A stretch of DNA of 64,000 nt from an uncultured Candidatus Saccharibacteria bacterium (GTDB taxonomy: Bacteria; Patescibacteriota; WWE3; 2-01-FULL-39-13), in assembly GCA_964370865.1 (NCBI GenBank), contig CAYJKF010000001.1, forward strand, positions 35,703 through 99,702. Reading direction: 5' to 3'. The notes beneath the pieces are model-generated. The model saw only the letters and a list, made by a program, of their open reading frames with translations, was not told the origin of the DNA and did no database searches. Shown piece after piece: positions 23,524 through 41,811 of this stretch. The position numbers and the translations under genes were made by a program. The first letter of the stretch is position 1, and each line of letters opens with the position of its first letter.

Positions 23524-23557
23524 CCTTCCAAATCAGTTTGAAAGACTCTTAAATGCG

Positions 23558-23640
23558 TGAGGCGGGGTAGAGTGTTTTGAATAGTGTTTTGATTGGAAAA
23601 ATCCCAGTCAAATCTTTTTCGAACACTCTGCCCGCCTCAT
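23558..23640. repeat. Long imperfect inverted repeat (about 18-bp stem with a 45-nt loop) at the left edge of GC-rich patch 1, followed by a second hairpin
   Basis: The arms are tgaggcggggtagagtgtt and aacactctgcccgcctca. The second hairpin, gtagctc...gagctac, lies at about 23650-23682. Confidence 0.5.
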
Positions 23641-23704
23641 TTGTAGCTCCGCTACCTCACGGTATGAGAGCTACTCCCAACGCATCTTGGCCTAGTCGGC
23701 GAGA

Positions 23705-24754
23705 TTAGTCTTCGATGAAGACCTCGCTGACAGTTCTGCTGCCGTTGTCGCTCTCGCGTGTTTTCCACTCAGCGAGTGTTTCGACTGACGGTCGACTTTC
23801 GAACGCGCAAGCGTACATGTGTGCCGTTCCCTCGGAACTATATCCAAGACCTTCGATCTGGACGTTCTGCCCCGGTTGGACAAGCAAGAGAACACGATCT
23901 CCGTACTGAACTTGATTCACACGTGCGGGATCCATCCCTGCCAAGACCCACAGGTCACTGTTGACGACCACCATGTCAGCTTGCGGATTATCGTATCCCA
24001 CAAGGAATGATGTGTCGTCTGGAACACATGTGACTACTGGTACTTCTTCGGTAACTTCAACTGCCGTATCTGCAGGCACCTCGACCGGGATGGTCTCGAT
24101 GACTGTTGAGGTTGTCGCCGCTGTTGCGGTGACGACGGTTGTTGCCACTGTGGCGAGGGCCACGACGGCGCCGGTGCGATGATCCACGACATCCACAACA
24201 TACGATACATTGTCTGACTGTGCCTGACGACGTTGCTCGATTGTGACCGGCGAAAGCATGTTGCTGCATTCGGGATAGGCATTAACGCTACCTGATGGCG
24301 ACAGAAGAGTCACCACGCGATAGGCACCTGGCCCCAAAAGCAGAACAGCAGACTTGCCACTCGACAGAGTAGCTCCGGTTAGCAGATCGTACAAAGTGTA
24401 AGGATCGGTCGTGACGATGCACTCATATGACTGTGGAACAACCATCGTGCCATCGCCGAGAGCCCAACCTGGCATGATTTGGTTTTGACCAAGAGTCGGA
24501 TATGCCGGACTTTTTGGCTCAACCGAAACCAAGACGATAGGAACTGCAGGGACTTCTGCGATGAGGAGAGTATTAGTCTCAACCTCGGACGCCTCAACAA
24601 CAGGCTCACCCTCGACCGGGATGGTCTCGGACTTGACTGTCGTGGCACTGTCACTGGTCGTAACTTGGGCTGGGGCCGAAGCCGGAGCCGGTGTCGCGCA
24701 TGCTGACAGAACCAACAAAACAACAAACAAACTACCTACAAGAAACTTGTTCAT
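23705..24754 (-). CDS. Secreted lipoprotein, hypothetical (GC-rich gene)
   Basis: A signal peptide with a lipobox (LVLSAC). The mature part is rich in V, T, A, P and E. The signal-peptide codons are AT-rich, but the mature part uses GC-ending codons (gtc, acc, ccg, atc). Confidence 0.6.
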   Translation of the reverse strand: MNKFLVGSLFVVLLVLSACATPAPASAPAQVTTSDSATTVKSETIPVEGEPVVEASEVETNTLLIAEVPAVPIVLVSVEPKSPAYPTLGQNQIMPGWALGDGTMVVPQSYECIVTTDPYTLYDLLTGATLSSGKSAVLLLGPGAYRVVTLLSPSGSVNAYPECSNMLSPVTIEQRRQAQSDNVSYVVDVVDHRTGAVVALATVATTVVTATAATTSTVIETIPVEVPADTAVEVTEEVPVVTCVPDDTSFLVGYDNPQADMVVVNSDLWVLAGMDPARVNQVQYGDRVLLLVQPGQNVQIEGLGYSSEGTAHMYACAFESRPSVETLAEWKTRESDNGSRTVSEVFIED

Positions 24755-24971: not shown

Positions 24972-25022
24972 ATGGCATGCTATATGCCATCAAATTGAAG
25001 TCAACGAATAAATTCCTTGACT
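24972..25022. promoter_or_regulatory. Perfect palindrome ATGGCAT-N5-ATGCCAT next to copy 1 of the W motif (gtcaacgaataaattccttgact), upstream of the lipoprotein gene
   Basis: Read directly from the sequence. The W motif recurs at 27126-27148 and, in partial form, at 29410-29421. Confidence 0.4.
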
Positions 25023-25331: not shown

Positions 25332-25560
25332 GGTCTACTCCCTATTCTGGTAAGTGATTACTGCACGATTGCCGAATGTAAAAGGATTCGACTCCTCTTA
25401 TATCCGACAACCGTTCTGATCTGCTATTTTTTAGTAAATGTGCTCTAGTATTTCTACTAGTTGTGTAAATCAACAAAGGCAATCTTTATTGACTCCTTTA
25501 GAACAAAAAATAATTTTTATCCTAAGGGATAAGGTGGTACTTTCTCTCAAAAGTGTGTCG

Positions 25561-25590
25561 ATTATACTATAGGGCCCCTACTTTTGTCAA
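25561..25590 (-). promoter_or_regulatory. Promoter X-A (cctataggaTTGACA-N18-TATAAT)
   Basis: The reverse complement of 25561-25598 reads cctataggATTGACAaaagtaggggccctatagTATAAT. The CTATAGG/CCTATAG inverted repeat brackets the spacer. Confidence 0.55.
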
Positions 25591-25659
25591 TCCTATAGGT
25601 CGCTTAAATTAAGAATAACCACCTTATATAATGTGCTTCCAACGATTGAAACAATCCTT

Positions 25660-25701: not shown

Positions 25702-25850
25702 TATACAAATCATTAATAAGTCTCAACTTACTTTTACCTTCGACTTAGATGTCAAAAACAAAAGTAAATTGGATCCAGAAAGAAATTAAAAAGTGTTGTG
25801 TGCGTGCTTGTTAGCATGCTCTTTTTAATCCTTCCTGGATCCATGGTTGT

Positions 25851-26900
25851 CTAGCGGGCGACGAAGGCGAGGTGAATCTTGTATGGAGAGAAGAAAAACT
25901 TCTGGAAATACATCCGTAGAGGCGACCGATCAGGGTCAAAAACGAGTTCGATTGTCTCAAACTCATACTCAACCACTACTAGGTCAACATCTTGGAAATT
26001 CTTCCAGAACTTTCCATCCACGTATACGTTGACCGACTCGACTTTGCAGCCAAAATTCAACTGTAAGTTGTTTCCATCCATTGTCCACAAGAAATTCGTG
26101 GGATGAGGTGTACTACAACTTGTAGGCGGTGGGGTGACACTGGGTGTCGGGAACACAACGAGTGTTGCAGTTGGCGATGGCGACGGTGTTGAGGTGGGAG
26201 CTGGTTCAATAGACCCAAATAGTTCTTCCCAAGTCAAATAGACCTTGGAATTTTGACCATCTGGATCAATCGCGAGCTCCATATCAACCACAAAATCCGA
26301 TTTGTTCACACGAACGACACCACCAGCCTCACTTCGGACAAATTCACCATCAAGATACAGATTTGCAATTTTGTTGCAGTCCCATCTGATGATGACTTCA
26401 TCCTCTACCACTTCCCATAATGAAAGACATACAACGGGAACCTCGGTTTCCGTTGGTGTTACCGTCATGGTAGAGACTGCTGTTGGTGAAATTGTTGGGT
26501 TGGGTGTCACCGGAACTAGATCCAGAAACAAGTAAACCTGATTGTCAGTCTCGTCTGTCTCAACAATCAAATTGTCTGGATCGAGCACGACTTCCAAACT
26601 TGTTTCTGGGCATCCCCGCACCAACAAAATCTCCGTTGGCGAAACCTCATTTCGACCAATATTTGTGTAATGGTCGAATTCCCCATCAACGTAGATATGA
26701 ACGATGATAGTGGCCTCTATCAATTCTGGGTTCTGAACTGCAAATTCCAAAATGACGAAGCACTGATCATCATGCGAAACAATATTAAACGTCCCGACTG
26801 AAATATTCGGAAGAGTCTCCGCCCGAACAACCGACACGGTCAAGCCTATAACCATAACAAGCGCCATGGCGACCAAGAACAAACTACACATCTTCTTCAT
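25851..26900 (-). CDS. Secreted protein with three internal approximately 100-aa repeats joined by Pro/Thr-rich linkers, hypothetical
   Basis: A signal peptide. The motifs HIYVDGEFDH, LYLDGEFVRSE and NVYVDGKFWKN recur, each followed by a DPD motif. PT-rich linkers separate the repeats. Confidence 0.6.
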   Translation of the reverse strand: MKKMCSLFLVAMALVMVIGLTVSVVRAETLPNISVGTFNIVSHDDQCFVILEFAVQNPELIEATIIVHIYVDGEFDHYTNIGRNEVSPTEILLVRGCPETSLEVVLDPDNLIVETDETDNQVYLFLDLVPVTPNPTISPTAVSTMTVTPTETEVPVVCLSLWEVVEDEVIIRWDCNKIANLYLDGEFVRSEAGGVVRVNKSDFVVDMELAIDPDGQNSKVYLTWEELFGSIEPAPTSTPSPSPTATLVVFPTPSVTPPPTSCSTPHPTNFLWTMDGNNLQLNFGCKVESVNVYVDGKFWKNFQDVDLVVVEYEFETIELVFDPDRSPLRMYFQKFFFSPYKIHLAFVAR

Positions 26901-27145
26901 GTTATCTCCTTGTGATAGTGTTGCGAAACAACCAAATAGAAAGCCATTTAAGCTACCTATTAGGTTGTTCCACAGAAACTAACCAAAGAGAATTTTCCGC
27001 TAGACTATTGTCAATATGAAACATATCCTTCTCCGCTTATGGATTGGAAAATTTCATACTATATTAATGTTCGATGAGTAAACTCATCAATATAAACCTA
27101 AGAAGCAAATTCTTCGGTTCATTCAGTCAACGAATAAATTCCTTG

Positions 27146-27187
27146 ACTTGTAAAAAGGATTCGTGTCCTGCCCAGTCACGAATCCTT
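27146..27187 (-). terminator. Terminator module Y-B (near-identical copy of Y-A), immediately preceded by W motif copy 2
   Basis: The minus strand reads aaggattcgtg-actgggcagga-cacgaatcctt followed by tttacaag. The stem is perfect. Confidence 0.55.
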
Positions 27188-27325
27188 ATACAAAAGTTGC
27201 GAACTGTCTAGTGTACTATTTAATTGTTATAAGTCTAGAGAATATTTTAGGCAGGGCGGGTTGCGATGAATCAGATTTGGGCCTGCGTAAAATAATCCTC
27301 TGTAATTCAATTGCGCGGCAAGTAT
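27150..27325 (-). ncRNA. Candidate approximately 170-nt small transcript or attenuator leader between promoter X-B and terminator Y-B
   Basis: A near-consensus promoter sits at 27321-27349 (minus strand). An intrinsic terminator follows about 130 nt downstream at 27146-27187. No convincing ORF lies between them. The next gene starts about 250 nt beyond the terminator. Confidence 0.35.
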
Positions 27326-27349
27326 ACTATAGGACTATATTTTTGTCAA
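27321..27349 (-). promoter_or_regulatory. Promoter X-B (cctctaggaTTGACA-N17-TATACT)
   Basis: The reverse complement reads cctctaggATTGACAaaaatatagtcctatagTATACT. Confidence 0.5.
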
Positions 27350-27458
27350 TCCTAGAGGTAAACCAATCCGCAGTTTAGAAGCTCAATTACCGCCAAATTC
27401 CTCTGCTATAGGTTTTGACAACATTGGATATTTATGCTAAATTTCAAGCACTAAAACC

Positions 27459-27493
27459 TCCCACGACACCGCAAGGTCTTCGTGGGATTTTTA
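27459..27493 (+). terminator. Intrinsic-terminator-like hairpin (cccacga...tcgtggg followed by ATTTTT)
   Basis: Read directly from the sequence. It may be bidirectional, since an A-tract lies upstream. Confidence 0.5.
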
Positions 27494-27502
27494 TTAAAAT
27501 AA

Positions 27503-28036
27503 ATGCCCAAAACAAGAACAACAATACTAATAGATGGCAGCAACTTCTACTTCAAACTAAAGGAGCTTAAACTTCACAACCTACTGAAATTCAACTTTGC
27601 TGAATTTGCTAGAGACCTGGCGGGAAAAGACCAAATTATCACCACAAACTACTATGTAGGAGCAGTCAAAACTGATGGAACACCAGCTATGCAAAAGAAC
27701 TTCGATAACCAACGTAAACTACTATCCCACCTTAAAAAACAAAAAATTAACTACACACTAGGATATTTATTAAAAACAGACGGAAAATTACACGAAAAAG
27801 GCGTAGATGTGCAGATTGCCGTTGATATTCTCGTCACGGCATATGAGAAAATCGCTGATCATATAATCATAATATCTTCAGATACCGACCTAGAACCAGC
27901 CATAAAGAAAGCCATCTCTAAAGGAGTCACCATAGAATATATTGGCTTTAAACACCAGCCTAGCCTAGCAATGAAGAGATTTTGTAATAAATATAAGTTG
28001 CTAGAGAAAAAGTACCTTAAGAAATATATAAAATAA
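27503..28036 (+). CDS. NYN/LabA-like domain protein (putative RNase)
   Basis: Motifs ILIDGSN, GVDVQIAVDIL and ISSDTDLEPAI are typical of NYN/LabA (DUF88). Confidence 0.7.
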   Translation: MPKTRTTILIDGSNFYFKLKELKLHNLLKFNFAEFARDLAGKDQIITTNYYVGAVKTDGTPAMQKNFDNQRKLLSHLKKQKINYTLGYLLKTDGKLHEKGVDVQIAVDILVTAYEKIADHIIIISSDTDLEPAIKKAISKGVTIEYIGFKHQPSLAMKRFCNKYKLLEKKYLKKYIK

Positions 28037-29485: not shown

Positions 29486-31150
29486 TTGATGCCATATATA
29501 AAATTAAAAAATGAGAAATCAATCACAACCATAGAAGAGTTATATGAGTCTCTTCTTCAACTTAGAAATTTCACTGAAGAAGAAATTTCTAACTCAAAGC
29601 ATCCTTCAGAATATATAGAGACATTATTTGAGAAAGAATATTTTCAAATTCAAAAAGCGGTAGAAATCATAAAAGAGCACTTGTATGATAAGAAATTAAT
29701 AATAATTCATGGAGATTATGATGCTGATGGTCAAACCGCCACTGCGATTCTACAAAGAACAATTAGAGACGATTTAGGAAAAAAGAATGTCATTGCGTAC
29801 ATTCCTAATAGATTTGATGAAGGATACGGTCTTAGCACCGAAAGTATAGATGGAATGGAAAAGAGAACAATTCAAGAAGGATTTACTCCAAATCAAACAC
29901 TCATAATAACAGTAGATTGTGGAATTGTTTCGCCAAGCGAAGCAAAAATACTAAAAGAAAAAGGATTCACAGTAATAATTACAGACCATCACTCTAAAAC
30001 TGACAAAATTCCAGAAGTAGATGCAATCGTTTGGACAGATAAAGCCACAGGAGCTGGAATTGCATGGACTATTTCTAACAACCTAATTACAAGCAAATTT
30101 CCTCATGAAAAAAATAAATATTCTGACCTTGCAGCAATTGGAACCATATGTGACTTACAACCTCTAACCGATTTTAATAGAAGTATTTCGAAAATGGGTT
30201 TATTAGGACTAAATACAAATTCAAATTTAGGAATAAAAAAATTATTAGAAGTAGCAGGAGTTAAATTTCCAATAGATACATATGAAATCGGATGGGTAAT
30301 TGGTCCAAGACTAAACGCCACTGGAAGACTTGAAAATGCGATGGACTCATTAAATTTGTTAATCTCTGATGATCCAACTGACGCATTAAGAATTTCTAAA
30401 GAACTTAATTTGCTGAATCAAACAAGACAAGATAAAACATTTGCAGGATTTGAAATGGCGTCCAAAAAGATTGGGGAAAATAATATTCCTAATTTTATAA
30501 TTTCTTCTGACGAAAATTATCATGAAGGAATAATTGGATTAATAGCAGGAAGACTAACTCAAAAATTTAATCATCCAGCGATTGCGATTTCGATAGACAA
30601 AAATTCTGGACTCGCGAAAGGATCAGCCAGATCGATTACTGGAATATCAATTGTGGATTCACTAAGAGAAGTAGAAACTCTATTTGAAAAGGTCGGCGGC
30701 CATGAAATGGCCGCCGGATTCACCATCAAAACAGAAAACATCGAAAAGTTAAATGAATTTCTAAATAAAACATTAAAAATAGACCTATCCATTTTCGATA
30801 AAAAAATAGAAGCCGACCTTGAACTTCCCTCTTCATTAATTAGCCTATCCGCCTACGAAAAAATTCAAAGACTAAAACCATTTGGAACGGGCAATCCAGA
30901 ACCTACTTTCCTAACAAAAAATCTTAAAGTATTTAATAAAATCGTATTTGGAAAAGAAAACACACATCTTAAACTATTCTTACTAGACGAAAATCAGAAT
31001 GAATTTACAGCACTCGGATTTGGAAGAAGTTACATGAGCAATAAAATAAACATCGGAGAAAGCATCGACCTTTGCTATAACTTCTCTCTCAATGAATGGA
31101 ACGGCAATCGAAATTTAGAATTAAAAATAAGAGAAATATTGTCTAATTAG
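29486..31150 (+). CDS. recJ: Single-stranded-DNA-specific exonuclease RecJ
   Basis: DHH-family motifs (IIHGDYDADGQTA, ITDHH) and a DHHA1-like C-terminal half. Confidence 0.85.
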   Translation: MMPYIKLKNEKSITTIEELYESLLQLRNFTEEEISNSKHPSEYIETLFEKEYFQIQKAVEIIKEHLYDKKLIIIHGDYDADGQTATAILQRTIRDDLGKKNVIAYIPNRFDEGYGLSTESIDGMEKRTIQEGFTPNQTLIITVDCGIVSPSEAKILKEKGFTVIITDHHSKTDKIPEVDAIVWTDKATGAGIAWTISNNLITSKFPHEKNKYSDLAAIGTICDLQPLTDFNRSISKMGLLGLNTNSNLGIKKLLEVAGVKFPIDTYEIGWVIGPRLNATGRLENAMDSLNLLISDDPTDALRISKELNLLNQTRQDKTFAGFEMASKKIGENNIPNFIISSDENYHEGIIGLIAGRLTQKFNHPAIAISIDKNSGLAKGSARSITGISIVDSLREVETLFEKVGGHEMAAGFTIKTENIEKLNEFLNKTLKIDLSIFDKKIEADLELPSSLISLSAYEKIQRLKPFGTGNPEPTFLTKNLKVFNKIVFGKENTHLKLFLLDENQNEFTALGFGRSYMSNKINIGESIDLCYNFSLNEWNGNRNLELKIREILSN

Positions 31151-31841
31151 GGTAAGAAGCAAATTCACTACCAGTACTTACTTTCCATATATTCTTTACT
31201 TCAACCTTTTCAATATCAGTCAGAAACCTCTCGTATTTTTGCTCCATAAGCGGGAGACCTGTTTCATCAAAGCTATCTCTTGAAACGCCAAACCTATTGA
31301 TTTCAGGCTCAAAGGTAAAAAACGCCTCTAATTGATGATGAACAGAATTATGTCCCATACCACTTATACCAAAGGCAAGAAAGTTCTCCTCAGAACACAT
31401 CGTAAATTCTAATTTACTCTTACAATCAAATATTATGAATGAATGTGGTTTTTCCTGATAATAAAGTAGAAAAGTATTAGCGCGATTAAGACCTAGAATC
31501 ACCCCATTATAAAAGTATGCCTTTTCATCAAAGAATACCTCCTTACTAAGGGTAAATTCACTTTTTAGTTGCTCGAGCTCCAAGGACTCCATAGATCTAG
31601 AACCTGCCTCTACTTCTGACGATGCAGATATAAAATGCCAAAGTCCATCCCGGAATCTAGTAAAAGGTTTATCTATCGAAAATGGACTCTCTATTTCTCC
31701 TCCATAATCGCTATTTTCCACATCATAATTGGGGATAACGATACCATTCAATAATAGATATGATGCGATTAAGGTTCGAGGAAGTTGAGGATGATCTTCA
31801 ACAAGTTGGTTTTCATTTGGGTTCCGAATAGAATCTTCCAT
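31143..31841 (-). CDS. Hypothetical protein
   Basis: A 232-aa ORF with no recognisable motif. Confidence 0.4.
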   Translation of the reverse strand: MEDSIRNPNENQLVEDHPQLPRTLIASYLLLNGIVIPNYDVENSDYGGEIESPFSIDKPFTRFRDGLWHFISASSEVEAGSRSMESLELEQLKSEFTLSKEVFFDEKAYFYNGVILGLNRANTFLLYYQEKPHSFIIFDCKSKLEFTMCSEENFLAFGISGMGHNSVHHQLEAFFTFEPEINRFGVSRDSFDETGLPLMEQKYERFLTDIEKVEVKNIWKVSTGSEFASYPN

Positions 31842-31947
31842 AAATTGTAAAACCCATTATATACTATAGGAATAATGAAACGTACTTACATCAACCAAAT
31901 CTCAAAATATATTGGACAAGAGATGTTAAACGATTGACACCACAATC

Positions 31948-37194: not shown

Positions 37195-39048
37195 TTATTC
37201 TAGCACAGCCTTTATTCTTCTAACTCCTTTTGCAACAGCTTCTTCTTTTAAAATTTTAAAGTGACCAAGTTCTGAAGTATTTCCTACATGTGGTCCACCG
37301 CAAAATTCTTTTGACCATGCCGATTCGATTGTTTCTCCAACATAATAAACGTTTACCATGTCTGCATATTTTTCACTAAAAAAATGAATTGCACCAGTCG
37401 CCTCGGCTTCTTTTATTGGAAGAACAACTTTATTCATTGGAAGTTTTTCTGAAATTTTTTGATTTACGAGTTGTTCGACTAACGCAATTTGTTCCACGGT
37501 CATCTTTTCATTATGCGAAAAATCAAAACGCAATCTTTCTGGCGTAATATTACTTCCCATTTGTCCAACATGTGTTCCTAATATTTCTCTAAGTGCGCTG
37601 TGTAATAAATGGGTAGCTGTATGAAGTTTTGTTGTTTCATAGGAATGGTCACCAAGCCCTCCTTTAAATCTATCACCCATATTTGCACGAGATTTTTCTT
37701 GATGCTCTTCGAGTTGTTTTTCGAAATCAGTAAAATCTACTTCTAAATTTAATTCTTTAGCGAGATTTTCAATTAAATCTTTTGAAGCGCCTTGTGATTG
37801 GTAAATATCAAATGGATTGTCGATTTTAGATAAAGCTTTGTTTACATATGTATGTGTTATAAAATTTCTTGTTCGATTAAATACTTCTTTATATAAATTA
37901 ACTTCATCGTTTATAACTTTAAAAATATGCGCCGTGTTATCAAGTTCTGGATAGATGTGTTTGTTTTTTTCAATAACCATTAATGCTATCTGATCAATTT
38001 GATCTGGGTTTATATATAGGTTCCACAGGCATTCATCAAATATCCTTCTTATAAGTCTTCTTAATACATATCCTTGATCTTTGTTTGATGGATATAAATT
38101 TTCAGCAATCAAAAAAGTTACAGTTCTAATATGGTCAGCGACCCTTTGAACTCCTGTTTTAATAGTTGTTTGCTCAATTGTAGTTGGATTTACTAAAGCG
38201 TCTTGAATTTTTTCGGATTCAGAACTTAAAGCAATTATTTTATTTATTATTTCGGAAAAAACATCTGTTTCATAAACAGAATCCACGTGCTGAATAAGTG
38301 TTGTCATTCGCTCAAGGCCTGAACCGGTATCAACAGATAAAGCAGGAAGTGGAGTTAGTTTTCCATCTTCTCCACGATTAAATTGCATAAAAACTCCTGC
38401 ATTCCAAATTTCTAAGTATCTTGGATTATCAGTTAGTCCTGGTCGATCTTCTTTTGGACCAAATTCTTCTCCTCTATCATATAAAACTTCAGTGCAGGGA
38501 CCACATGGACCAACGGGACCTGGAGCCCACCAATTTTCACTCCCTGGCAATTTTGAAATGTGAGATTCAGGTACTCCAACTGATTTCCATGCCTCAATGG
38601 TTTCAGTATCTTCGGGGCATTCTTCGTTTCCTTCAAAAACAGTCGGACGGAATTTTGTAGCATCAAATCCGAATCCGTATTCTTTGTTTGTTAACAAATC
38701 AAATGCAAACTGAATGGCTTCTTTTTTGCCATAATCTCCAATTGACCAGTTACCAAGCATTTCGAAAAATGTAAGGTGATATTTACTTGTTCCAACAATA
38801 TCTAAATCTCCAGTTCTAATACATTTCTGTGAGCTACAAAGTCTCTTCGAACCAAAATCTTTCTCGGCATCCCTCTCACCTAAAAAATAAGGCGTAAATT
38901 GAACCATTCCAGAATTTGTAAAAAGCAATGTTGGATGATTTTCGGGAATAAGTTTACTCGATGAAACCTCAATATGAGGATATCCACGTTCAGCCAAAAC
39001 CTTAACAAAATAATCAATAAATCTCTTACGGATTTCAGTAGATGTCAT
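37195..39048 (-). CDS. alaS: Alanine--tRNA ligase (short form lacking the C-terminal domain)
   Basis: An N-terminus MTSTEIRKRFIDYFVKVLAERGYPHIEVSSSKLIP...LLFTNSGM, the class II core, and an editing-domain HxxxH motif (TATHLLHSALR). The longer ORF in the track, ending at 39210, overlaps the conserved repeat, so M55 is the more likely start. Confidence 0.8.
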   Translation of the reverse strand: MTSTEIRKRFIDYFVKVLAERGYPHIEVSSSKLIPENHPTLLFTNSGMVQFTPYFLGERDAEKDFGSKRLCSSQKCIRTGDLDIVGTSKYHLTFFEMLGNWSIGDYGKKEAIQFAFDLLTNKEYGFGFDATKFRPTVFEGNEECPEDTETIEAWKSVGVPESHISKLPGSENWWAPGPVGPCGPCTEVLYDRGEEFGPKEDRPGLTDNPRYLEIWNAGVFMQFNRGEDGKLTPLPALSVDTGSGLERMTTLIQHVDSVYETDVFSEIINKIIALSSESEKIQDALVNPTTIEQTTIKTGVQRVADHIRTVTFLIAENLYPSNKDQGYVLRRLIRRIFDECLWNLYINPDQIDQIALMVIEKNKHIYPELDNTAHIFKVINDEVNLYKEVFNRTRNFITHTYVNKALSKIDNPFDIYQSQGASKDLIENLAKELNLEVDFTDFEKQLEEHQEKSRANMGDRFKGGLGDHSYETTKLHTATHLLHSALREILGTHVGQMGSNITPERLRFDFSHNEKMTVEQIALVEQLVNQKISEKLPMNKVVLPIKEAEATGAIHFFSEKYADMVNVYYVGETIESAWSKEFCGGPHVGNTSELGHFKILKEEAVAKGVRRIKAVLE

Positions 39049-39082
39049 GAAGGTATTATATAGGATTTTGTCTTTGGAAAAA

Positions 39083-39207
39083 GGGTACTGCGGCTGATAG
39101 GGTGAAAGAAAAAGTTTTGTATTCAAAAGAATACATGTTTTGGTCGAAATGACCGAAACAGATCTATGAAGATCAACTTTTCTCTCAACCCTATCAGCTT
39201 TTTTTAT
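39083..39207 (+). ncRNA. Structured repeat element copy 1 (candidate small RNA). It has a long closing stem, two internal perfect hairpins and a T7 run.
   Basis: The outer stem is gctgatagggtgaaagaaaaagtt / aacttttctctcaaccctatcagc. Inside are the hairpins gtattc-aaaa-gaatac and ggtc-gaaat-gacc. The element ends in TTTTTTT. A -10-like TATTATAT lies about 25 nt upstream. A second copy, about 90% identical, is at 40312-40437. The strand assignment is tentative. Confidence 0.4.
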
Positions 39208-39310
39208 CAAATGAATTCATTTTATTTTTCTTAGCACGATTGCCAAGAATTTTTTTACTATTTTAATGCGGTAAAGCTATGTAAACAACTCCTCGCGGAA
39301 TTGTTAAAAA

Positions 39311-39345
39311 GAAGCAGAACCCGGGACGGGGGTTCTTTTCTTTGT
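39311..39345. terminator. Bidirectional intrinsic terminator hairpin (agaaccc-ggga-c-gggggttct, flanked by an A-run and a T-run) after gene 39348-39875
   Basis: Read directly from the sequence. Confidence 0.6.
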
Positions 39346-39347
39346 GT

Positions 39348-39875
39348 TCATCGCTTTACCGCGAGGACGACATGGAGTCCTCCATTGCTGGAGCTCCCGG
39401 CAACCCAAAGTTTAGCACGAGGCTGTTCGGTACTTGGATCAAGCCAAGTATAAGTTTGCCCTGGCCAAACAATCCATCCATCTACAAAGACTTCCGAGAC
39501 AACTGTGCCTTCCTTCCCGTAGGGAGGAGTCATCCGGATGAATAACTCATCCTTCATGATTCCATAACCTATGAGGTCGGCTTCTATGTTGTACTGATCG
39601 AGGACGGGGAAGCCCTTGTCGATTGGAAACAACTCTGGCATACGGCCAGGTAATGCTGGAAGATTTTGGATAACATACATGTTGACTGGGCTATACCCAA
39701 CTTGGAGTATCTCCCAATTCTCGTCCGCCGTAGGAAGCGCTGTCAGTGTCGATACTTCAGTTGGCATCTCCATAGAAGTCGATGGAAGTGCTTCCCCGAC
39801 TCTTTCGGATACTTTGCATACCAAAAAAGATATCAACAGTCCAACACACACCAAAAATCCCAGTAGCTTACTCAT
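39348..39875 (-). CDS. Secreted hypothetical protein (cassette copy 1; moderately GC-enriched)
   Basis: A signal peptide (MSKLLGFLVCVGLLISFLVC). The C-terminal segment EVFVDGWIVWPGQT resembles EVFLNGIPVEPGIT in the gene at 40579-41811. An AGGAGG ribosome-binding site lies upstream. Confidence 0.55.
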   Translation of the reverse strand: MSKLLGFLVCVGLLISFLVCKVSERVGEALPSTSMEMPTEVSTLTALPTADENWEILQVGYSPVNMYVIQNLPALPGRMPELFPIDKGFPVLDQYNIEADLIGYGIMKDELFIRMTPPYGKEGTVVSEVFVDGWIVWPGQTYTWLDPSTEQPRAKLWVAGSSSNGGLHVVLAVKR

Positions 39876-40219: not shown

Positions 40220-40311
40220 TAATCTAGCCAGGCTCGATTACTTGGTCAAAATTTTCTTCAATTTTTGCTGATGTCAGGATGATGTTATATAGATTTTTAT
40301 ATTGTGAGAAA

Positions 40312-40437
40312 GGGTACTGCGGCTGATAGGGTGAAAGAAAAAGTTTTGTATTCAAAAGAATACAATGTTTTGGTCGAAATGACCGAAACAGATCTTAAAT
40401 GATCAACTTTCCTCTCAGCCCTATCAGCTTTCTTTGA
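40312..40437 (+). ncRNA. Structured repeat element copy 2 (candidate small RNA)
   Basis: It has the same stem/hairpin architecture as copy 1. It is preceded by an extended -10-like TGtTATATA. Confidence 0.4.
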
Positions 40438-40578
40438 ATCAAATGAATTAATTTATTTTTCTTAGCACGATTGCCAAGAAATTTTTCTTTCTACAGCAAC
40501 TGCTATATGAACAATTCCTCACGGAACTGTTAGAAAGAAGCAGAACCCGGGACGGGGGCTCGACTTCTCTTCTCATCT

Positions 40579-41811
40579 CTACCTTGCGGTAGGGACGAGG
40601 GGTGATTCAGCGGTGCCCGCAAGGCTTGTTTGCCCTGGGCAAAGTGACAGCTGGAAAGCTCTCCCGACGATGAGGACATCTCCTCGAACTATGTCGTCAT
40701 AGCGAACTTTTAGGACCCAATTGTCTCCCCACCTCGTGATACCTGGTTCAACCGGAATGCCGTTCAAGAACACCTCTTGAATGAAGAATACATTCTCCTG
40801 GTTGAACTGAACAATATGGACCTGAATGAGATCTCCACCATTAGTGAGGTCAAATAGGCCCTCGCCATGCAAAGACCACTCTGGTCCTTCTACTTCTTCC
40901 TGCCAGGAAGTCTCAACTGCAGACGTCGTGATGACGCTGACGTAGGGATCTCCCGAACCACGGACGAGGTAACATTTCTCGCCATCATCAGGCTCCGGAG
41001 TTGATGTTGCCTCGACGTTGGGCATTGGTGTTGGAATTTCCGTAGGTTGTTCTGTGGGAACTTCCGTTGGTTGTTCTGTAGGAACTTCCGTTGGTTGTTC
41101 TGTGGGAACTTCCGTTGGTTGTTCTGTAGGAACTTCCGTTGGCTGTTCTGTAGGAACTTCCGTTGGCTGTTCTGTGGGAACTTTCGTTGGTTGTTCTGTA
41201 GGAACTTCCGTTGGCTGTTCTGTGGGAACTACCGTTGGCTCGTCTGTTGGGACTGCCGTTGGTTCGTCTGTTGGGACTACCGTTGGCTCGTCTGTCGGGA
41301 CTGCTGTTGGCTCGTCTGTTGGGACTGCCGTTGGTTCGTCCGTCGGGACTGCCGTTGGTTCGTCCGTCGGGACTGCCGTTGGCTCGTCTGTTGGGACTAC
41401 CGTTGGCTCGTCTGTTGGGACTACCGTTGGCTCGTCGTCTGTTGGGACTGCCGTTGGTTCGTCTGTTGGGACTTCTGTACACTCTGGTGTGGGAACTTGA
41501 GTAGGAACCTCTGTCGGCTTCGGGGTTTTTGTGGGTTTATCACCACCACACCAACCTTCGTTACCATCGGCTCTATCTTCATCGTTACCACATCCATTAT
41601 TATCGTGTGGCTTTCCCTCCCCAGGATCAGGTGTGCCTTGATCTCGATCTGGCCCATGACCATCATTGTCTGGCTCGTTGAAACCTCGGGTCGGCTCCGG
41701 CAAAGGAGAATCCTTCGATCCATTTGCACTCACCACACGAGGAAGCATTATCATTGTGCCAAGCAAGGCCACAATAATAATTACACTGAATACCGCAAAC
41801 AACTTGCGCAT
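40579..41811 (-). CDS. Secreted protein with a long (PTDEPTAV)n/(PTEQPTEV)n Pro/Thr-rich tandem-repeat region (cassette copy 2; GC-rich)
   Basis: A signal peptide, an acidic Gly/Asp-rich N-terminal region, about 20 eight-residue repeats and a C-terminal globular part. It has the same flanking leader and 3' repeat elements as copy 1. Confidence 0.65.
   Translation of the reverse strand: MRKLFAVFSVIIIVALLGTMIMLPRVVSANGSKDSPLPEPTRGFNEPDNDGHGPDRDQGTPDPGEGKPHDNNGCGNDEDRADGNEGWCGGDKPTKTPKPTEVPTQVPTPECTEVPTDEPTAVPTDDEPTVVPTDEPTVVPTDEPTAVPTDEPTAVPTDEPTAVPTDEPTAVPTDEPTVVPTDEPTAVPTDEPTVVPTEQPTEVPTEQPTKVPTEQPTEVPTEQPTEVPTEQPTEVPTEQPTEVPTEQPTEVPTEQPTEIPTPMPNVEATSTPEPDDGEKCYLVRGSGDPYVSVITTSAVETSWQEEVEGPEWSLHGEGLFDLTNGGDLIQVHIVQFNQENVFFIQEVFLNGIPVEPGITRWGDNWVLKVRYDDIVRGDVLIVGRAFQLSLCPGQTSLAGTAESPLVPTAR
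41018..41500. repeat. 24-bp coding tandem-repeat array (about 20 units, two subfamilies) inside gene 40579-41811
   Basis: Units such as ggaacttccgttggttgttctgtg and ggactgccgttggttcgtctgtt repeat head to tail. They translate on the minus strand to VPTEQPTE and VPTDEPTA. Confidence 0.85.

Follow-up and report, generated by a model that had tools for sequence, protein, structure and literature searches.

Premature intrinsic terminators in 5′ untranslated regions (UTRs), which give rise to short terminated leader RNAs, have been catalogued by Term-seq in Bacillus, Listeria and Enterococcus. The locus described here lies in a 64-kb window (the whole stretch of DNA that was analysed) of a Patescibacteria (CPR) bacterial chromosome, whose nearest genomes are Patescibacteria MAGs. 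Like the catalogued examples, it has a promoter, an untranslated RNA of ~100–200 nt that ends in a hairpin and a U-run, and, in the same orientation, a gene without a recognisable promoter of its own. Unlike them, it lacks both an anti-terminator and a recognisable sensor, whether riboswitch, T-box, leader peptide or RAT-like overlap, and its terminator lies 246 nt rather than tens of nucleotides from the start codon and is followed by four more conserved hairpins. Riboswitch- or leader-derived RNAs that act in trans, such as those of the Listeria SreA/SreB type, offer a second comparison. Here, too, the terminated 5′ leader could be both a checkpoint in cis and a free small RNA (sRNA), although the analysis identified neither an aptamer nor significant complementarity to a target, the sole lead being an 8-bp match to the loop of the terminator hairpin.

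Two further classes of RNA are relevant. The mRNAs of S-layer and other major surface proteins, for example Lactobacillus slpA, carry long structured 5′ UTRs behind very strong promoters. The present locus resembles these in that a consensus promoter and a long hairpin-rich leader precede the gene of a secreted or surface protein and in that the leader is more conserved than the protein; it differs in that the protein is an orphan and not a recognised S-layer protein, and slpA-type leaders are, to our knowledge, not known to hold an intrinsic terminator 165 nt in. Classical Hfq-type sRNA genes of enterobacteria possess their own promoter, a seed region and a Rho-independent terminator. The succession of promoter, 5′ hairpin, single-stranded stretch and terminator is the same here, whereas the absence of an Rfam homologue, the short U-run and the physical continuity with a conserved downstream leader are not typical of them. 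In the literature searched, we found no report of native regulatory RNAs or transcription attenuation in Patescibacteria, and a 2024 review mentions none. These bacteria have tiny genomes and few regulators, and they rely on surface contact with host cells.

Layout and conservation of the locus

On the minus strand, the promoter X-B is followed by ~130 nt of untranslated sequence, the terminator-like hairpin Y-B, the palindrome W1, 224 nt with the hairpins P2–P5, gene 1, the hairpin T1 and Y-A, a second copy of Y. Beyond Y-A lie a degenerate W-like hairpin, the promoter X-A, a structured leader, a 68-aa membrane ORF, W3 (a second copy of W) and a lipoprotein gene. Gene 1 (25851..26900, minus strand) encodes a secreted orphan protein of 349 aa. 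It has a signal peptide, and P/T-rich linkers connect its three repeated modules; the protein also gave a weak CARDB-like match. A search of 5.8 billion proteins returned, besides the protein itself, a single match of 28% identity, and as an orphan the protein was ruled out as an anchor for finding relatives of the locus. The lipoprotein gene (24754..23705, minus strand) also encodes 349 aa and is unrelated to gene 1. The flanking genes encode RecJ, a SAM-dependent methyltransferase, a PMT_2 glycosyltransferase and an NYN protein, and the NYN gene (27503-28036, plus strand) is divergent from X-B. A tRNA/tmRNA scan found no such genes.

The window was compared with L017, the sole other known lineage, so that the comparison involves two lineages in all. 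The NYN proteins of the two are 93% identical and the next relatives reach at most 69%, with no intermediates; the other members of the 93% NYN cluster, three further assemblies from other studies (L097–L099), carry an allele identical to that of L017. Clonal contigs from ENA and Logan (L001–L016) are 100% identical and uninformative, the differences in L015 lying at a contig end and a single L013 SNP in neutral-like spacer. Divergence from L017 is 23.9% (83/347) at the third codon positions of the NYN and methyltransferase genes and 23% (14/61) in the 61-nt spacer between the divergent X-B and NYN promoters. By comparison, it is 2.9% (5/174) in the predicted short RNA that ends at Y-B (27316-27143) and 2.8% (6/213) in the leader downstream of it (27142-26930). 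From the X-B start site to just before the ribosome-binding site (RBS), there are thus 11 differences in 387 nt (2.8%). The probability of 11 or fewer changes in 387 nt is ~2e-31 at the third-position rate and 1e-8 at the all-position coding rate, and ~175 nt that cover Y-B, W1, P2 and P3 show zero differences.

Because a divergence of 2.8% stands against ~24% at neutral-like sites, the non-coding stretch reaches the conservation of protein-coding sequence and is, as judged from its sequence, a real and strongly constrained regulatory RNA region, the mode of action of which we infer from its predicted elements. The conserved block ends where functional elements lie, at the −35 box and at the RBS, and the constrained element of ~420 nt (from the −35 box to just before the RBS) extends far beyond the 204 nt considered in an earlier, sequence-only reading of this DNA. 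Since the block edges are functional and a neutral-like spacer lies between two conserved blocks, selection explains the conservation better than a recent recombination tract does. Unpaired linkers are conserved as well, which implies constraint beyond base pairing. Downstream of the RBS the situation is reversed: the 5′ coding sequence of gene 1 is only ~65% identical to that of L017, whereas the leader is ~97% identical, so that, from the sequence comparison, gene 1 is evolving very fast behind a frozen regulatory region. A ~97%-identical non-coding region before a ~65%-identical secreted protein is a testable candidate for the control of a fast-evolving surface protein. The leader gave no match in an nhmmer search against 79 other CPR loci and, by BLAST, was absent from phage and plasmid collections.

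Coding does not explain the conservation, because all small ORFs on either strand fail. The sequence-only reading saw no ORF between X-B and Y-B, and this holds: the sole candidate is a 27-codon TTG frame that has no RBS and contains a stop codon in L017, and gene callers run on 12 public contigs called nothing between the two elements. Two plus-strand frames were also rejected, one of 71 codons in which every change relative to L017 is non-synonymous, and one of 45 codons that has no RBS and lies wholly inside the invariant block.

Promoter X-B and the repeated hairpins

As the sequence-only reading had proposed, X-B (27321..27357, minus strand) is a promoter-like element with a −35 box TTGACA (27349-27344), a 17-nt spacer and a −10 box TATACT (27326-27321) with an associated CCTATAG block, preceded by a CTCTAG box (27357-27352). 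Its hexamers match the sigma-70-type consensus at 11/12 positions and its spacer falls within the range of 16–18 nt. A score of 11/12 alone is not beyond chance, as 5 sites with at least 11/12 matches occur in the window and 2.7 ± 1.4 in shuffled sequences. X-B is nevertheless a credible promoter with a predicted start, on sequence grounds, because it is intergenic, has a CTATAG-type box, shares the extended blocks ACCT[C/A]TAGGATTGACAAAA (18/19) and CCTATAGTATA (11/11) with X-A, and keeps both hexamers and the CCTATAG block unchanged in L017 while three bases of its spacer (27340-27338) are altered and the sequence upstream is 23% diverged. Its paralogue X-A (25561..25600, minus strand) matches the consensus at 12/12 positions and is predicted to drive the structured leader, the 68-aa membrane ORF and the lipoprotein gene. 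The other transcription units of the window have promoter matches of 10–12/12. On the minus strand between Y-B and the ATG of gene 1, no promoter-like site of at least 9/12 was found by a consensus scan, which could miss weak or activator-dependent promoters.

Four promoters of the window (17645, 25590, 27349 on the minus strand and 27415 on the plus strand) carry a CTATAG-type box (CTCTAG in X-B), which precedes TTGACA by 1–4 nt; this makes 3–4 of 21 TTGACA sites against ~0.04 expected, and one of these promoters serves a DUF11 surface-protein gene. The box may characterise a family of promoters, either as an UP-like element or as a regulator site. A third exact copy of CCTATAGTATA, extended to CCTATAGTATATAAT, lies at 31856-31870 (minus strand) directly upstream of a 232-aa ORF (31841..31143), with no recognisable −35 box.

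Y-B (27146..27194, minus strand) has the form of an intrinsic terminator: a stable, G+C-containing stem-loop (27187-27177 paired with 27165-27155) is followed by a U-run (27156-27152) that the plus strand lacks. The 5′ arm AAGGATTCGTG, the 11-nt loop ACTGGGCAGGA and the 3′ arm CACGAATCCTT form 11 Watson–Crick pairs with an energy of ~−16 to −18 kcal/mol, and the sequence is 100% identical in L017 and L099. The perfect 11-bp-stem terminator described in the sequence-only reading is therefore present, in the sense that its pairs and U-run exist and termination is predicted. The outer two pairs consume the first two of the five U's, which join with the upstream AA, so that the element can be read as an 11-bp stem with UUU (tail score −2.5) or as a 9-bp stem with UUUUU (−3.7). 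Y-B was absent from a simple terminator scan, which allowed loops of 3–8 nt, because its 11-nt loop is longer than usual.

The second copy, Y-A (25709-25663, minus strand), lies 3′ of the stop codon of gene 1 and is followed by the degenerate W-like hairpin W2′ (25663-25640). The near-identity of Y-A and Y-B that had been noted is borne out, with 44 of 47 positions identical and zero such matches expected by chance. All three differences fall in the stem, where a C-G pair is compensated to U-A and an A is replaced by G so that a U·G pair results; this U·G pair can form on the minus strand only, where Y-A has an energy of −16.8 kcal/mol compared with −10.4 kcal/mol on the plus strand. Y-A had also been taken to terminate gene 1, and here the reading has to be amended, as a larger hairpin, T1 (25770..25845, minus strand; −31.7 kcal/mol, ~22-bp stem, U-rich tail), comes earlier. 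Because T1 directly follows the stop codon of gene 1, it is the candidate for the primary terminator, and Y-A is a candidate second, tandem terminator.

The same reading regarded the terminator as a repeated unit. A local two-copy duplication flanking gene 1 stands, whereas a general or dispersed module does not: a covariance model built from both copies recovered these 2 from the 64-kb window and nothing but the orthologue from a further 0.94 Mb of CPR DNA, and Y had no match in JGI metagenomes or IMG/VR. The many scattered copies of a REP-, BIME- or MITE-like dispersed repeat were thus not seen. A 21-nt half-Y, AGGAGTCGAATCCTTTTACA, does occur in the X-A leader at 25377-25396, where it is 18/21 identical to the loop end, 3′ arm and U-run of Y-B and follows X-A by 171 nt, a distance similar to the 158 nt from X-B to Y-B. 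Strong structure in the X-A leader (25350-25499) is confined to the minus strand (z −7.2 versus −1.3). As a paralogue of the X-B RNA body it was rejected, since the bodies are unrelated and have only the half-Y in common; H3, a hairpin before W3, was likewise rejected as a decayed Y (p = 0.9).

The palindrome W1 (27125..27148, minus strand; AGTCAAGGAAT-TT-ATTCGTTGACT, 11-2-11 with one G·G mismatch) follows Y-B and is separated by 224 nt from the gene 1 ATG at 26900, in agreement with the arrangement first described. An exact second 24-nt copy, W3 (24999..25022, minus strand), lies 244 nt upstream of the lipoprotein gene, so that identical W motifs precede two unrelated secreted-protein genes at 224 and 244 nt from the ATG. 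The degenerate third copy, W2′, keeps its hairpin potential through compensated changes in the arms. There were 0 matches to W in JGI metagenomes. W is a candidate control element; as a promoter it was rejected, the TTGACT that it contains having no consistent −10 partner in the two copies.

These repeats raise the question of whether the locus acts at the level of DNA. In that case X, Y and W would have no RNA function and would be relics of duplication and protein-binding palindromes or scars of recombination, surrounding an orphan gene that has been inserted. Direct repeats do lie on both sides of gene 1 (Y+W at a spacing of 1485 nt, X at ~1760 nt), a second orphan secreted gene is likewise flanked by repeats (~300 nt, of the alaS leader), W and P3 are palindromes with a 2-nt centre of the kind typical of dimer-binding sites, and folding z-scores in 27000-27199 are similar on both strands. 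Relics, however, would not stay at 2.8% divergence beside neutral-like sites at 23–24%, the unpaired linkers are conserved along with the rest, and the compensated stem differences between Y-A and Y-B, together with the U·G pair of Y-A that forms on the minus strand only, speak for RNA. We consider a purely DNA-level origin very unlikely.

Leader structure and the proposed fate of the transcript

The predicted short RNA of ~165 nt (27150..27316, minus strand) would run from a start at ~27316-27314 to the U-run of Y-B and consists of the hairpin P1 (27301-27237), a largely unpaired AU-rich stretch and Y-B. The leader downstream (26904..27122, minus strand) contains P2 (27122-27092), P3 (27090-27071), P4 (27061-27012) and P5 (26991-26904). 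The whole 416-nt leader folds far better than shuffled sequences (z = −8.3). In a sliding scan, every intergenic region of the locus was hairpin-rich, so that hairpins by themselves do not set the leader apart, and the body that extends from X-B to Y-B was, when taken separately, unremarkable (z ~−1.6). P2–P5 contain 10 G·U pairs on the minus strand and 1 on the plus strand, and they are 2–14 kcal/mol more stable on the minus strand (−40.3 versus −26.2 kcal/mol for P5); because of this strand bias and greater stability, the predicted folds indicate that P2–P5 act as minus-sense RNA.

The comparison with L017 provides 0 compensatory pairs in the leader, for two lineages. Among the 11 leader substitutions, seven affect positions that are unpaired in the predicted fold and one turns an A-U pair into G-U; the other three disrupt predicted pairing, twice in P1 and once in the outer stem of P5. 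As a model, the secondary structure of the leader is plausible. In the predicted fold, the base of P5 pairs with the Shine–Dalgarno (SD) sequence AAGGAGA, but sequestration of the SD sequence by P5 was rejected as not conserved in detail, since the partner in L017 differs and was created by a 14-nt insertion in that lineage.

Such a leader might be a long 5′ UTR in which no real termination takes place. The surface-protein mRNA would then be highly expressed and have a 415-nt UTR whose hairpins, about seven in number and including Y-B, are structural or stabilising, and the short U-run of Y-B would be incidental. The extreme structure and uniform conservation of the whole leader agree with this, as does the likewise long structured leader of the neighbouring X-A unit. 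In addition, only three U's remain past the 11-bp stem (tail score −2.5), and the UACAAG that follows the U's can pair with the UUUGUA that precedes the stem to give a 17-bp hairpin. However, the 9-bp stem with its five-U tail satisfies standard terminator criteria, and a 47-nt Y unit with the same U-run occurs at the 3′ end of gene 1, where a terminator is expected. A UTR in which Y-B has no terminating role is therefore, in our judgement, unlikely.

We favour, tentatively and with a probability of about 0.45, a single leader of ~415 nt driven by X-B, in which Y-B would end most transcripts as a ~165-nt RNA and gene 1 would be expressed by read-through at a level set in trans. According to this model, X-B is a strong sigma-70-type promoter from which one conserved, hairpin-rich leader of gene 1 would be transcribed. 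Y-B, ~165 nt in, would serve as an intrinsic terminator at which many transcripts end as a short stable RNA, and as only read-through transcripts would carry gene 1, it would constitute an early termination checkpoint. Because the RNA has no competing anti-terminator helix, the read-through fraction would either be fixed by the modest U-run or be tuned by a trans-acting factor, and any regulation would need such a factor. Such a factor could recognise P1 and the Y loop, both of which are conserved, or else W, the palindrome directly after Y-B that gene 1 shares with the neighbouring secreted-protein gene. The ~165-nt RNA could also have a role in trans. Transcription from X-B, termination at Y-B in vivo and the supply of gene 1 by read-through are all deduced from these predicted elements.

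Several observations favour the single leader. Constraint is unbroken from the −35 box to the RBS, with no neutral-like break between the short RNA and the region in which a separate promoter would have to lie. P2–P5, which are RNA-type hairpins, begin 3 nt after W1 and leave no room for another promoter; an RNA that contains them would have to start upstream of 27122, where X-B is the sole available promoter. Y meets ordinary terminator criteria and has a paralogue at the 3′ end of a gene, and the stem differences between the two are compensated. Against the single leader, the 246 nt between Y-B and the start codon are unusual for attenuators, and the leader offers 0 compensatory pairs and three substitutions that break predicted pairs.

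The sequence-only reading offered an attenuator leader or a stand-alone small RNA. The geometry on which it was based is real and this pair of options is still the right one, whereas its riboswitch or RNA-switch version is unsupported, because there is no Rfam match, no anti-terminator and no leader peptide and the terminator lies 246 nt from the ATG. In that version, the 120 nt before Y-B would form an aptamer that chooses between terminator and anti-terminator. The geometry fits: a promoter is followed by a strongly conserved RNA, which is closed by a P1-like helix (i1-9/i111-118), and then by a terminator. Nevertheless, a search of the whole window against Rfam 15 gave 0 families at the gathering threshold, and what it returned at E ≤ 10 did not exceed chance level. 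Folds of the nascent transcript truncated at nt 135–150, before the 3′ arm of the terminator, gave alternatives of only 1–2 kcal/mol. The body is not unusually stable, the P1 substitutions disrupt rather than compensate pairs, and gene 1, an orphan secreted protein gene, has no metabolic link. Ribosome-mediated attenuation would require a leader peptide, and the only frame, the 27-codon one, lacks an SD sequence and is interrupted in L017. A ligand-sensing switch is hence hardly credible here, and we rate it as the least probable of the explanations considered.

The other option, a stand-alone trans-acting sRNA of ~165 nt with efficient termination at Y-B, would require gene 1 to have a promoter of its own in the conserved region after W1, either non-consensus or dependent on an activator, and W might be the site of an activator or a repressor. 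The layout is a classic one (a strong promoter of its own, a 5′ hairpin, an AU-rich unpaired stretch, an intrinsic terminator and no ORF), and a predicted promoter and terminator around a conserved non-coding sequence are what a trans-acting sRNA gene would present. The body is 97% conserved, the Y paralogue closes another transcription unit, there is no anti-terminator and the terminator stands 246 nt from the ATG. The Y loop, which is identical in Y-A and Y-B, also pairs over 8 bp with CCUGCCUA in P1 (i62-69) at −15.2 kcal/mol, a match with p ~0.01 against both shuffled sequences and genomic background; the match gives a hint that the RNA docks on the Y-A loop, which belongs to the 3′ end of the neighbouring mRNA, and is suggestive only, given the number of tests run. 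On the other side, no promoter of at least 9/12 lies downstream of Y-B, the RNA-type hairpins with their G·U pairs start 3 nt after W1, and the supposed units are not separated by a relaxed spacer such as that on the other side of X-B. Moreover, the duplex energy of the short RNA with its own leader is no better than that of shuffles (z +0.6), and no target stands out among the translation-initiation regions of the 64-kb window. An independent sRNA gene is the main rival to the single leader, and we regard it as less probable.

The single leader and the stand-alone sRNA do not rule each other out, since a leader that has been terminated can have a function in trans as well, and the element would work like a 5′-UTR premature terminator, a leader-derived sRNA, or both. 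A more far-reaching version, which we regard as speculative and improbable, would make the ~415-nt block a new, lineage-specific multi-hairpin RNA of Patescibacteria, in which a trans-controlled early terminator and W co-ordinate adjacent diversifying surface proteins and CCUGCCUA lets the ~165-nt RNA dock on the identical Y loop in the 3′-terminal part of the same mRNA. If Y-B were merely a constitutive partial terminator, the locus would represent ordinary bacterial gene architecture. As the promoter is of consensus type and the terminator simple, both should function with E. coli RNA polymerase.

Duplicated cassettes and other features of the window

The second orphan secreted gene (39875..39348) is flanked by ~300-nt repeats, 86–97% identical, of the terminator-promoter-leader cassette of alaS. 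As such duplication is seen both at gene 1 and at this gene, duplicated regulatory cassettes around lineage-specific secreted genes are a recurrent feature of the genome, and this recurrent duplication probably accounts for the two copies each of Y and X. The alaS cassette (39032-39335, minus strand, with its copy at 40261-40561) consists of a terminator hairpin, GAACCCCCGTCCCGGGTTC, a TTGGCA-16-TAAAAT promoter and a ~130-nt long-hairpin leader that ends in CCCTTTTTCC; the true alaS ATG is at ~39047. The copy, 1229 nt upstream, precedes a gene for a 175-aa orphan secreted protein and retains a decayed alaS start. The alaS leader belongs to no Rfam family, its best match being Trp_leader_2 at E 0.24, far below threshold.

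A conserved hairpin (CCCACGA...TCGTGGG, 27458-27498) separates the NYN promoter from the NYN ATG; on both strands it has an energy of ~−17 kcal/mol and a U-run. Because the NYN and methyltransferase genes are convergent with a 3-nt gap, this hairpin may stop methyltransferase read-through, which would be antisense across NYN, short of X-B. The NYN start codon has no SD sequence. Downstream of the lipoprotein gene, an inverted repeat of ~18 bp with a ~50-nt loop (23540-23700; z ~−8 on both strands) is probably the terminator of that gene. At 40957-41484, a 24-nt unit is repeated ~22 times in tandem and codes for the P/T-rich repeat (Pfam PT, PF04886) in a protein of 410 aa.
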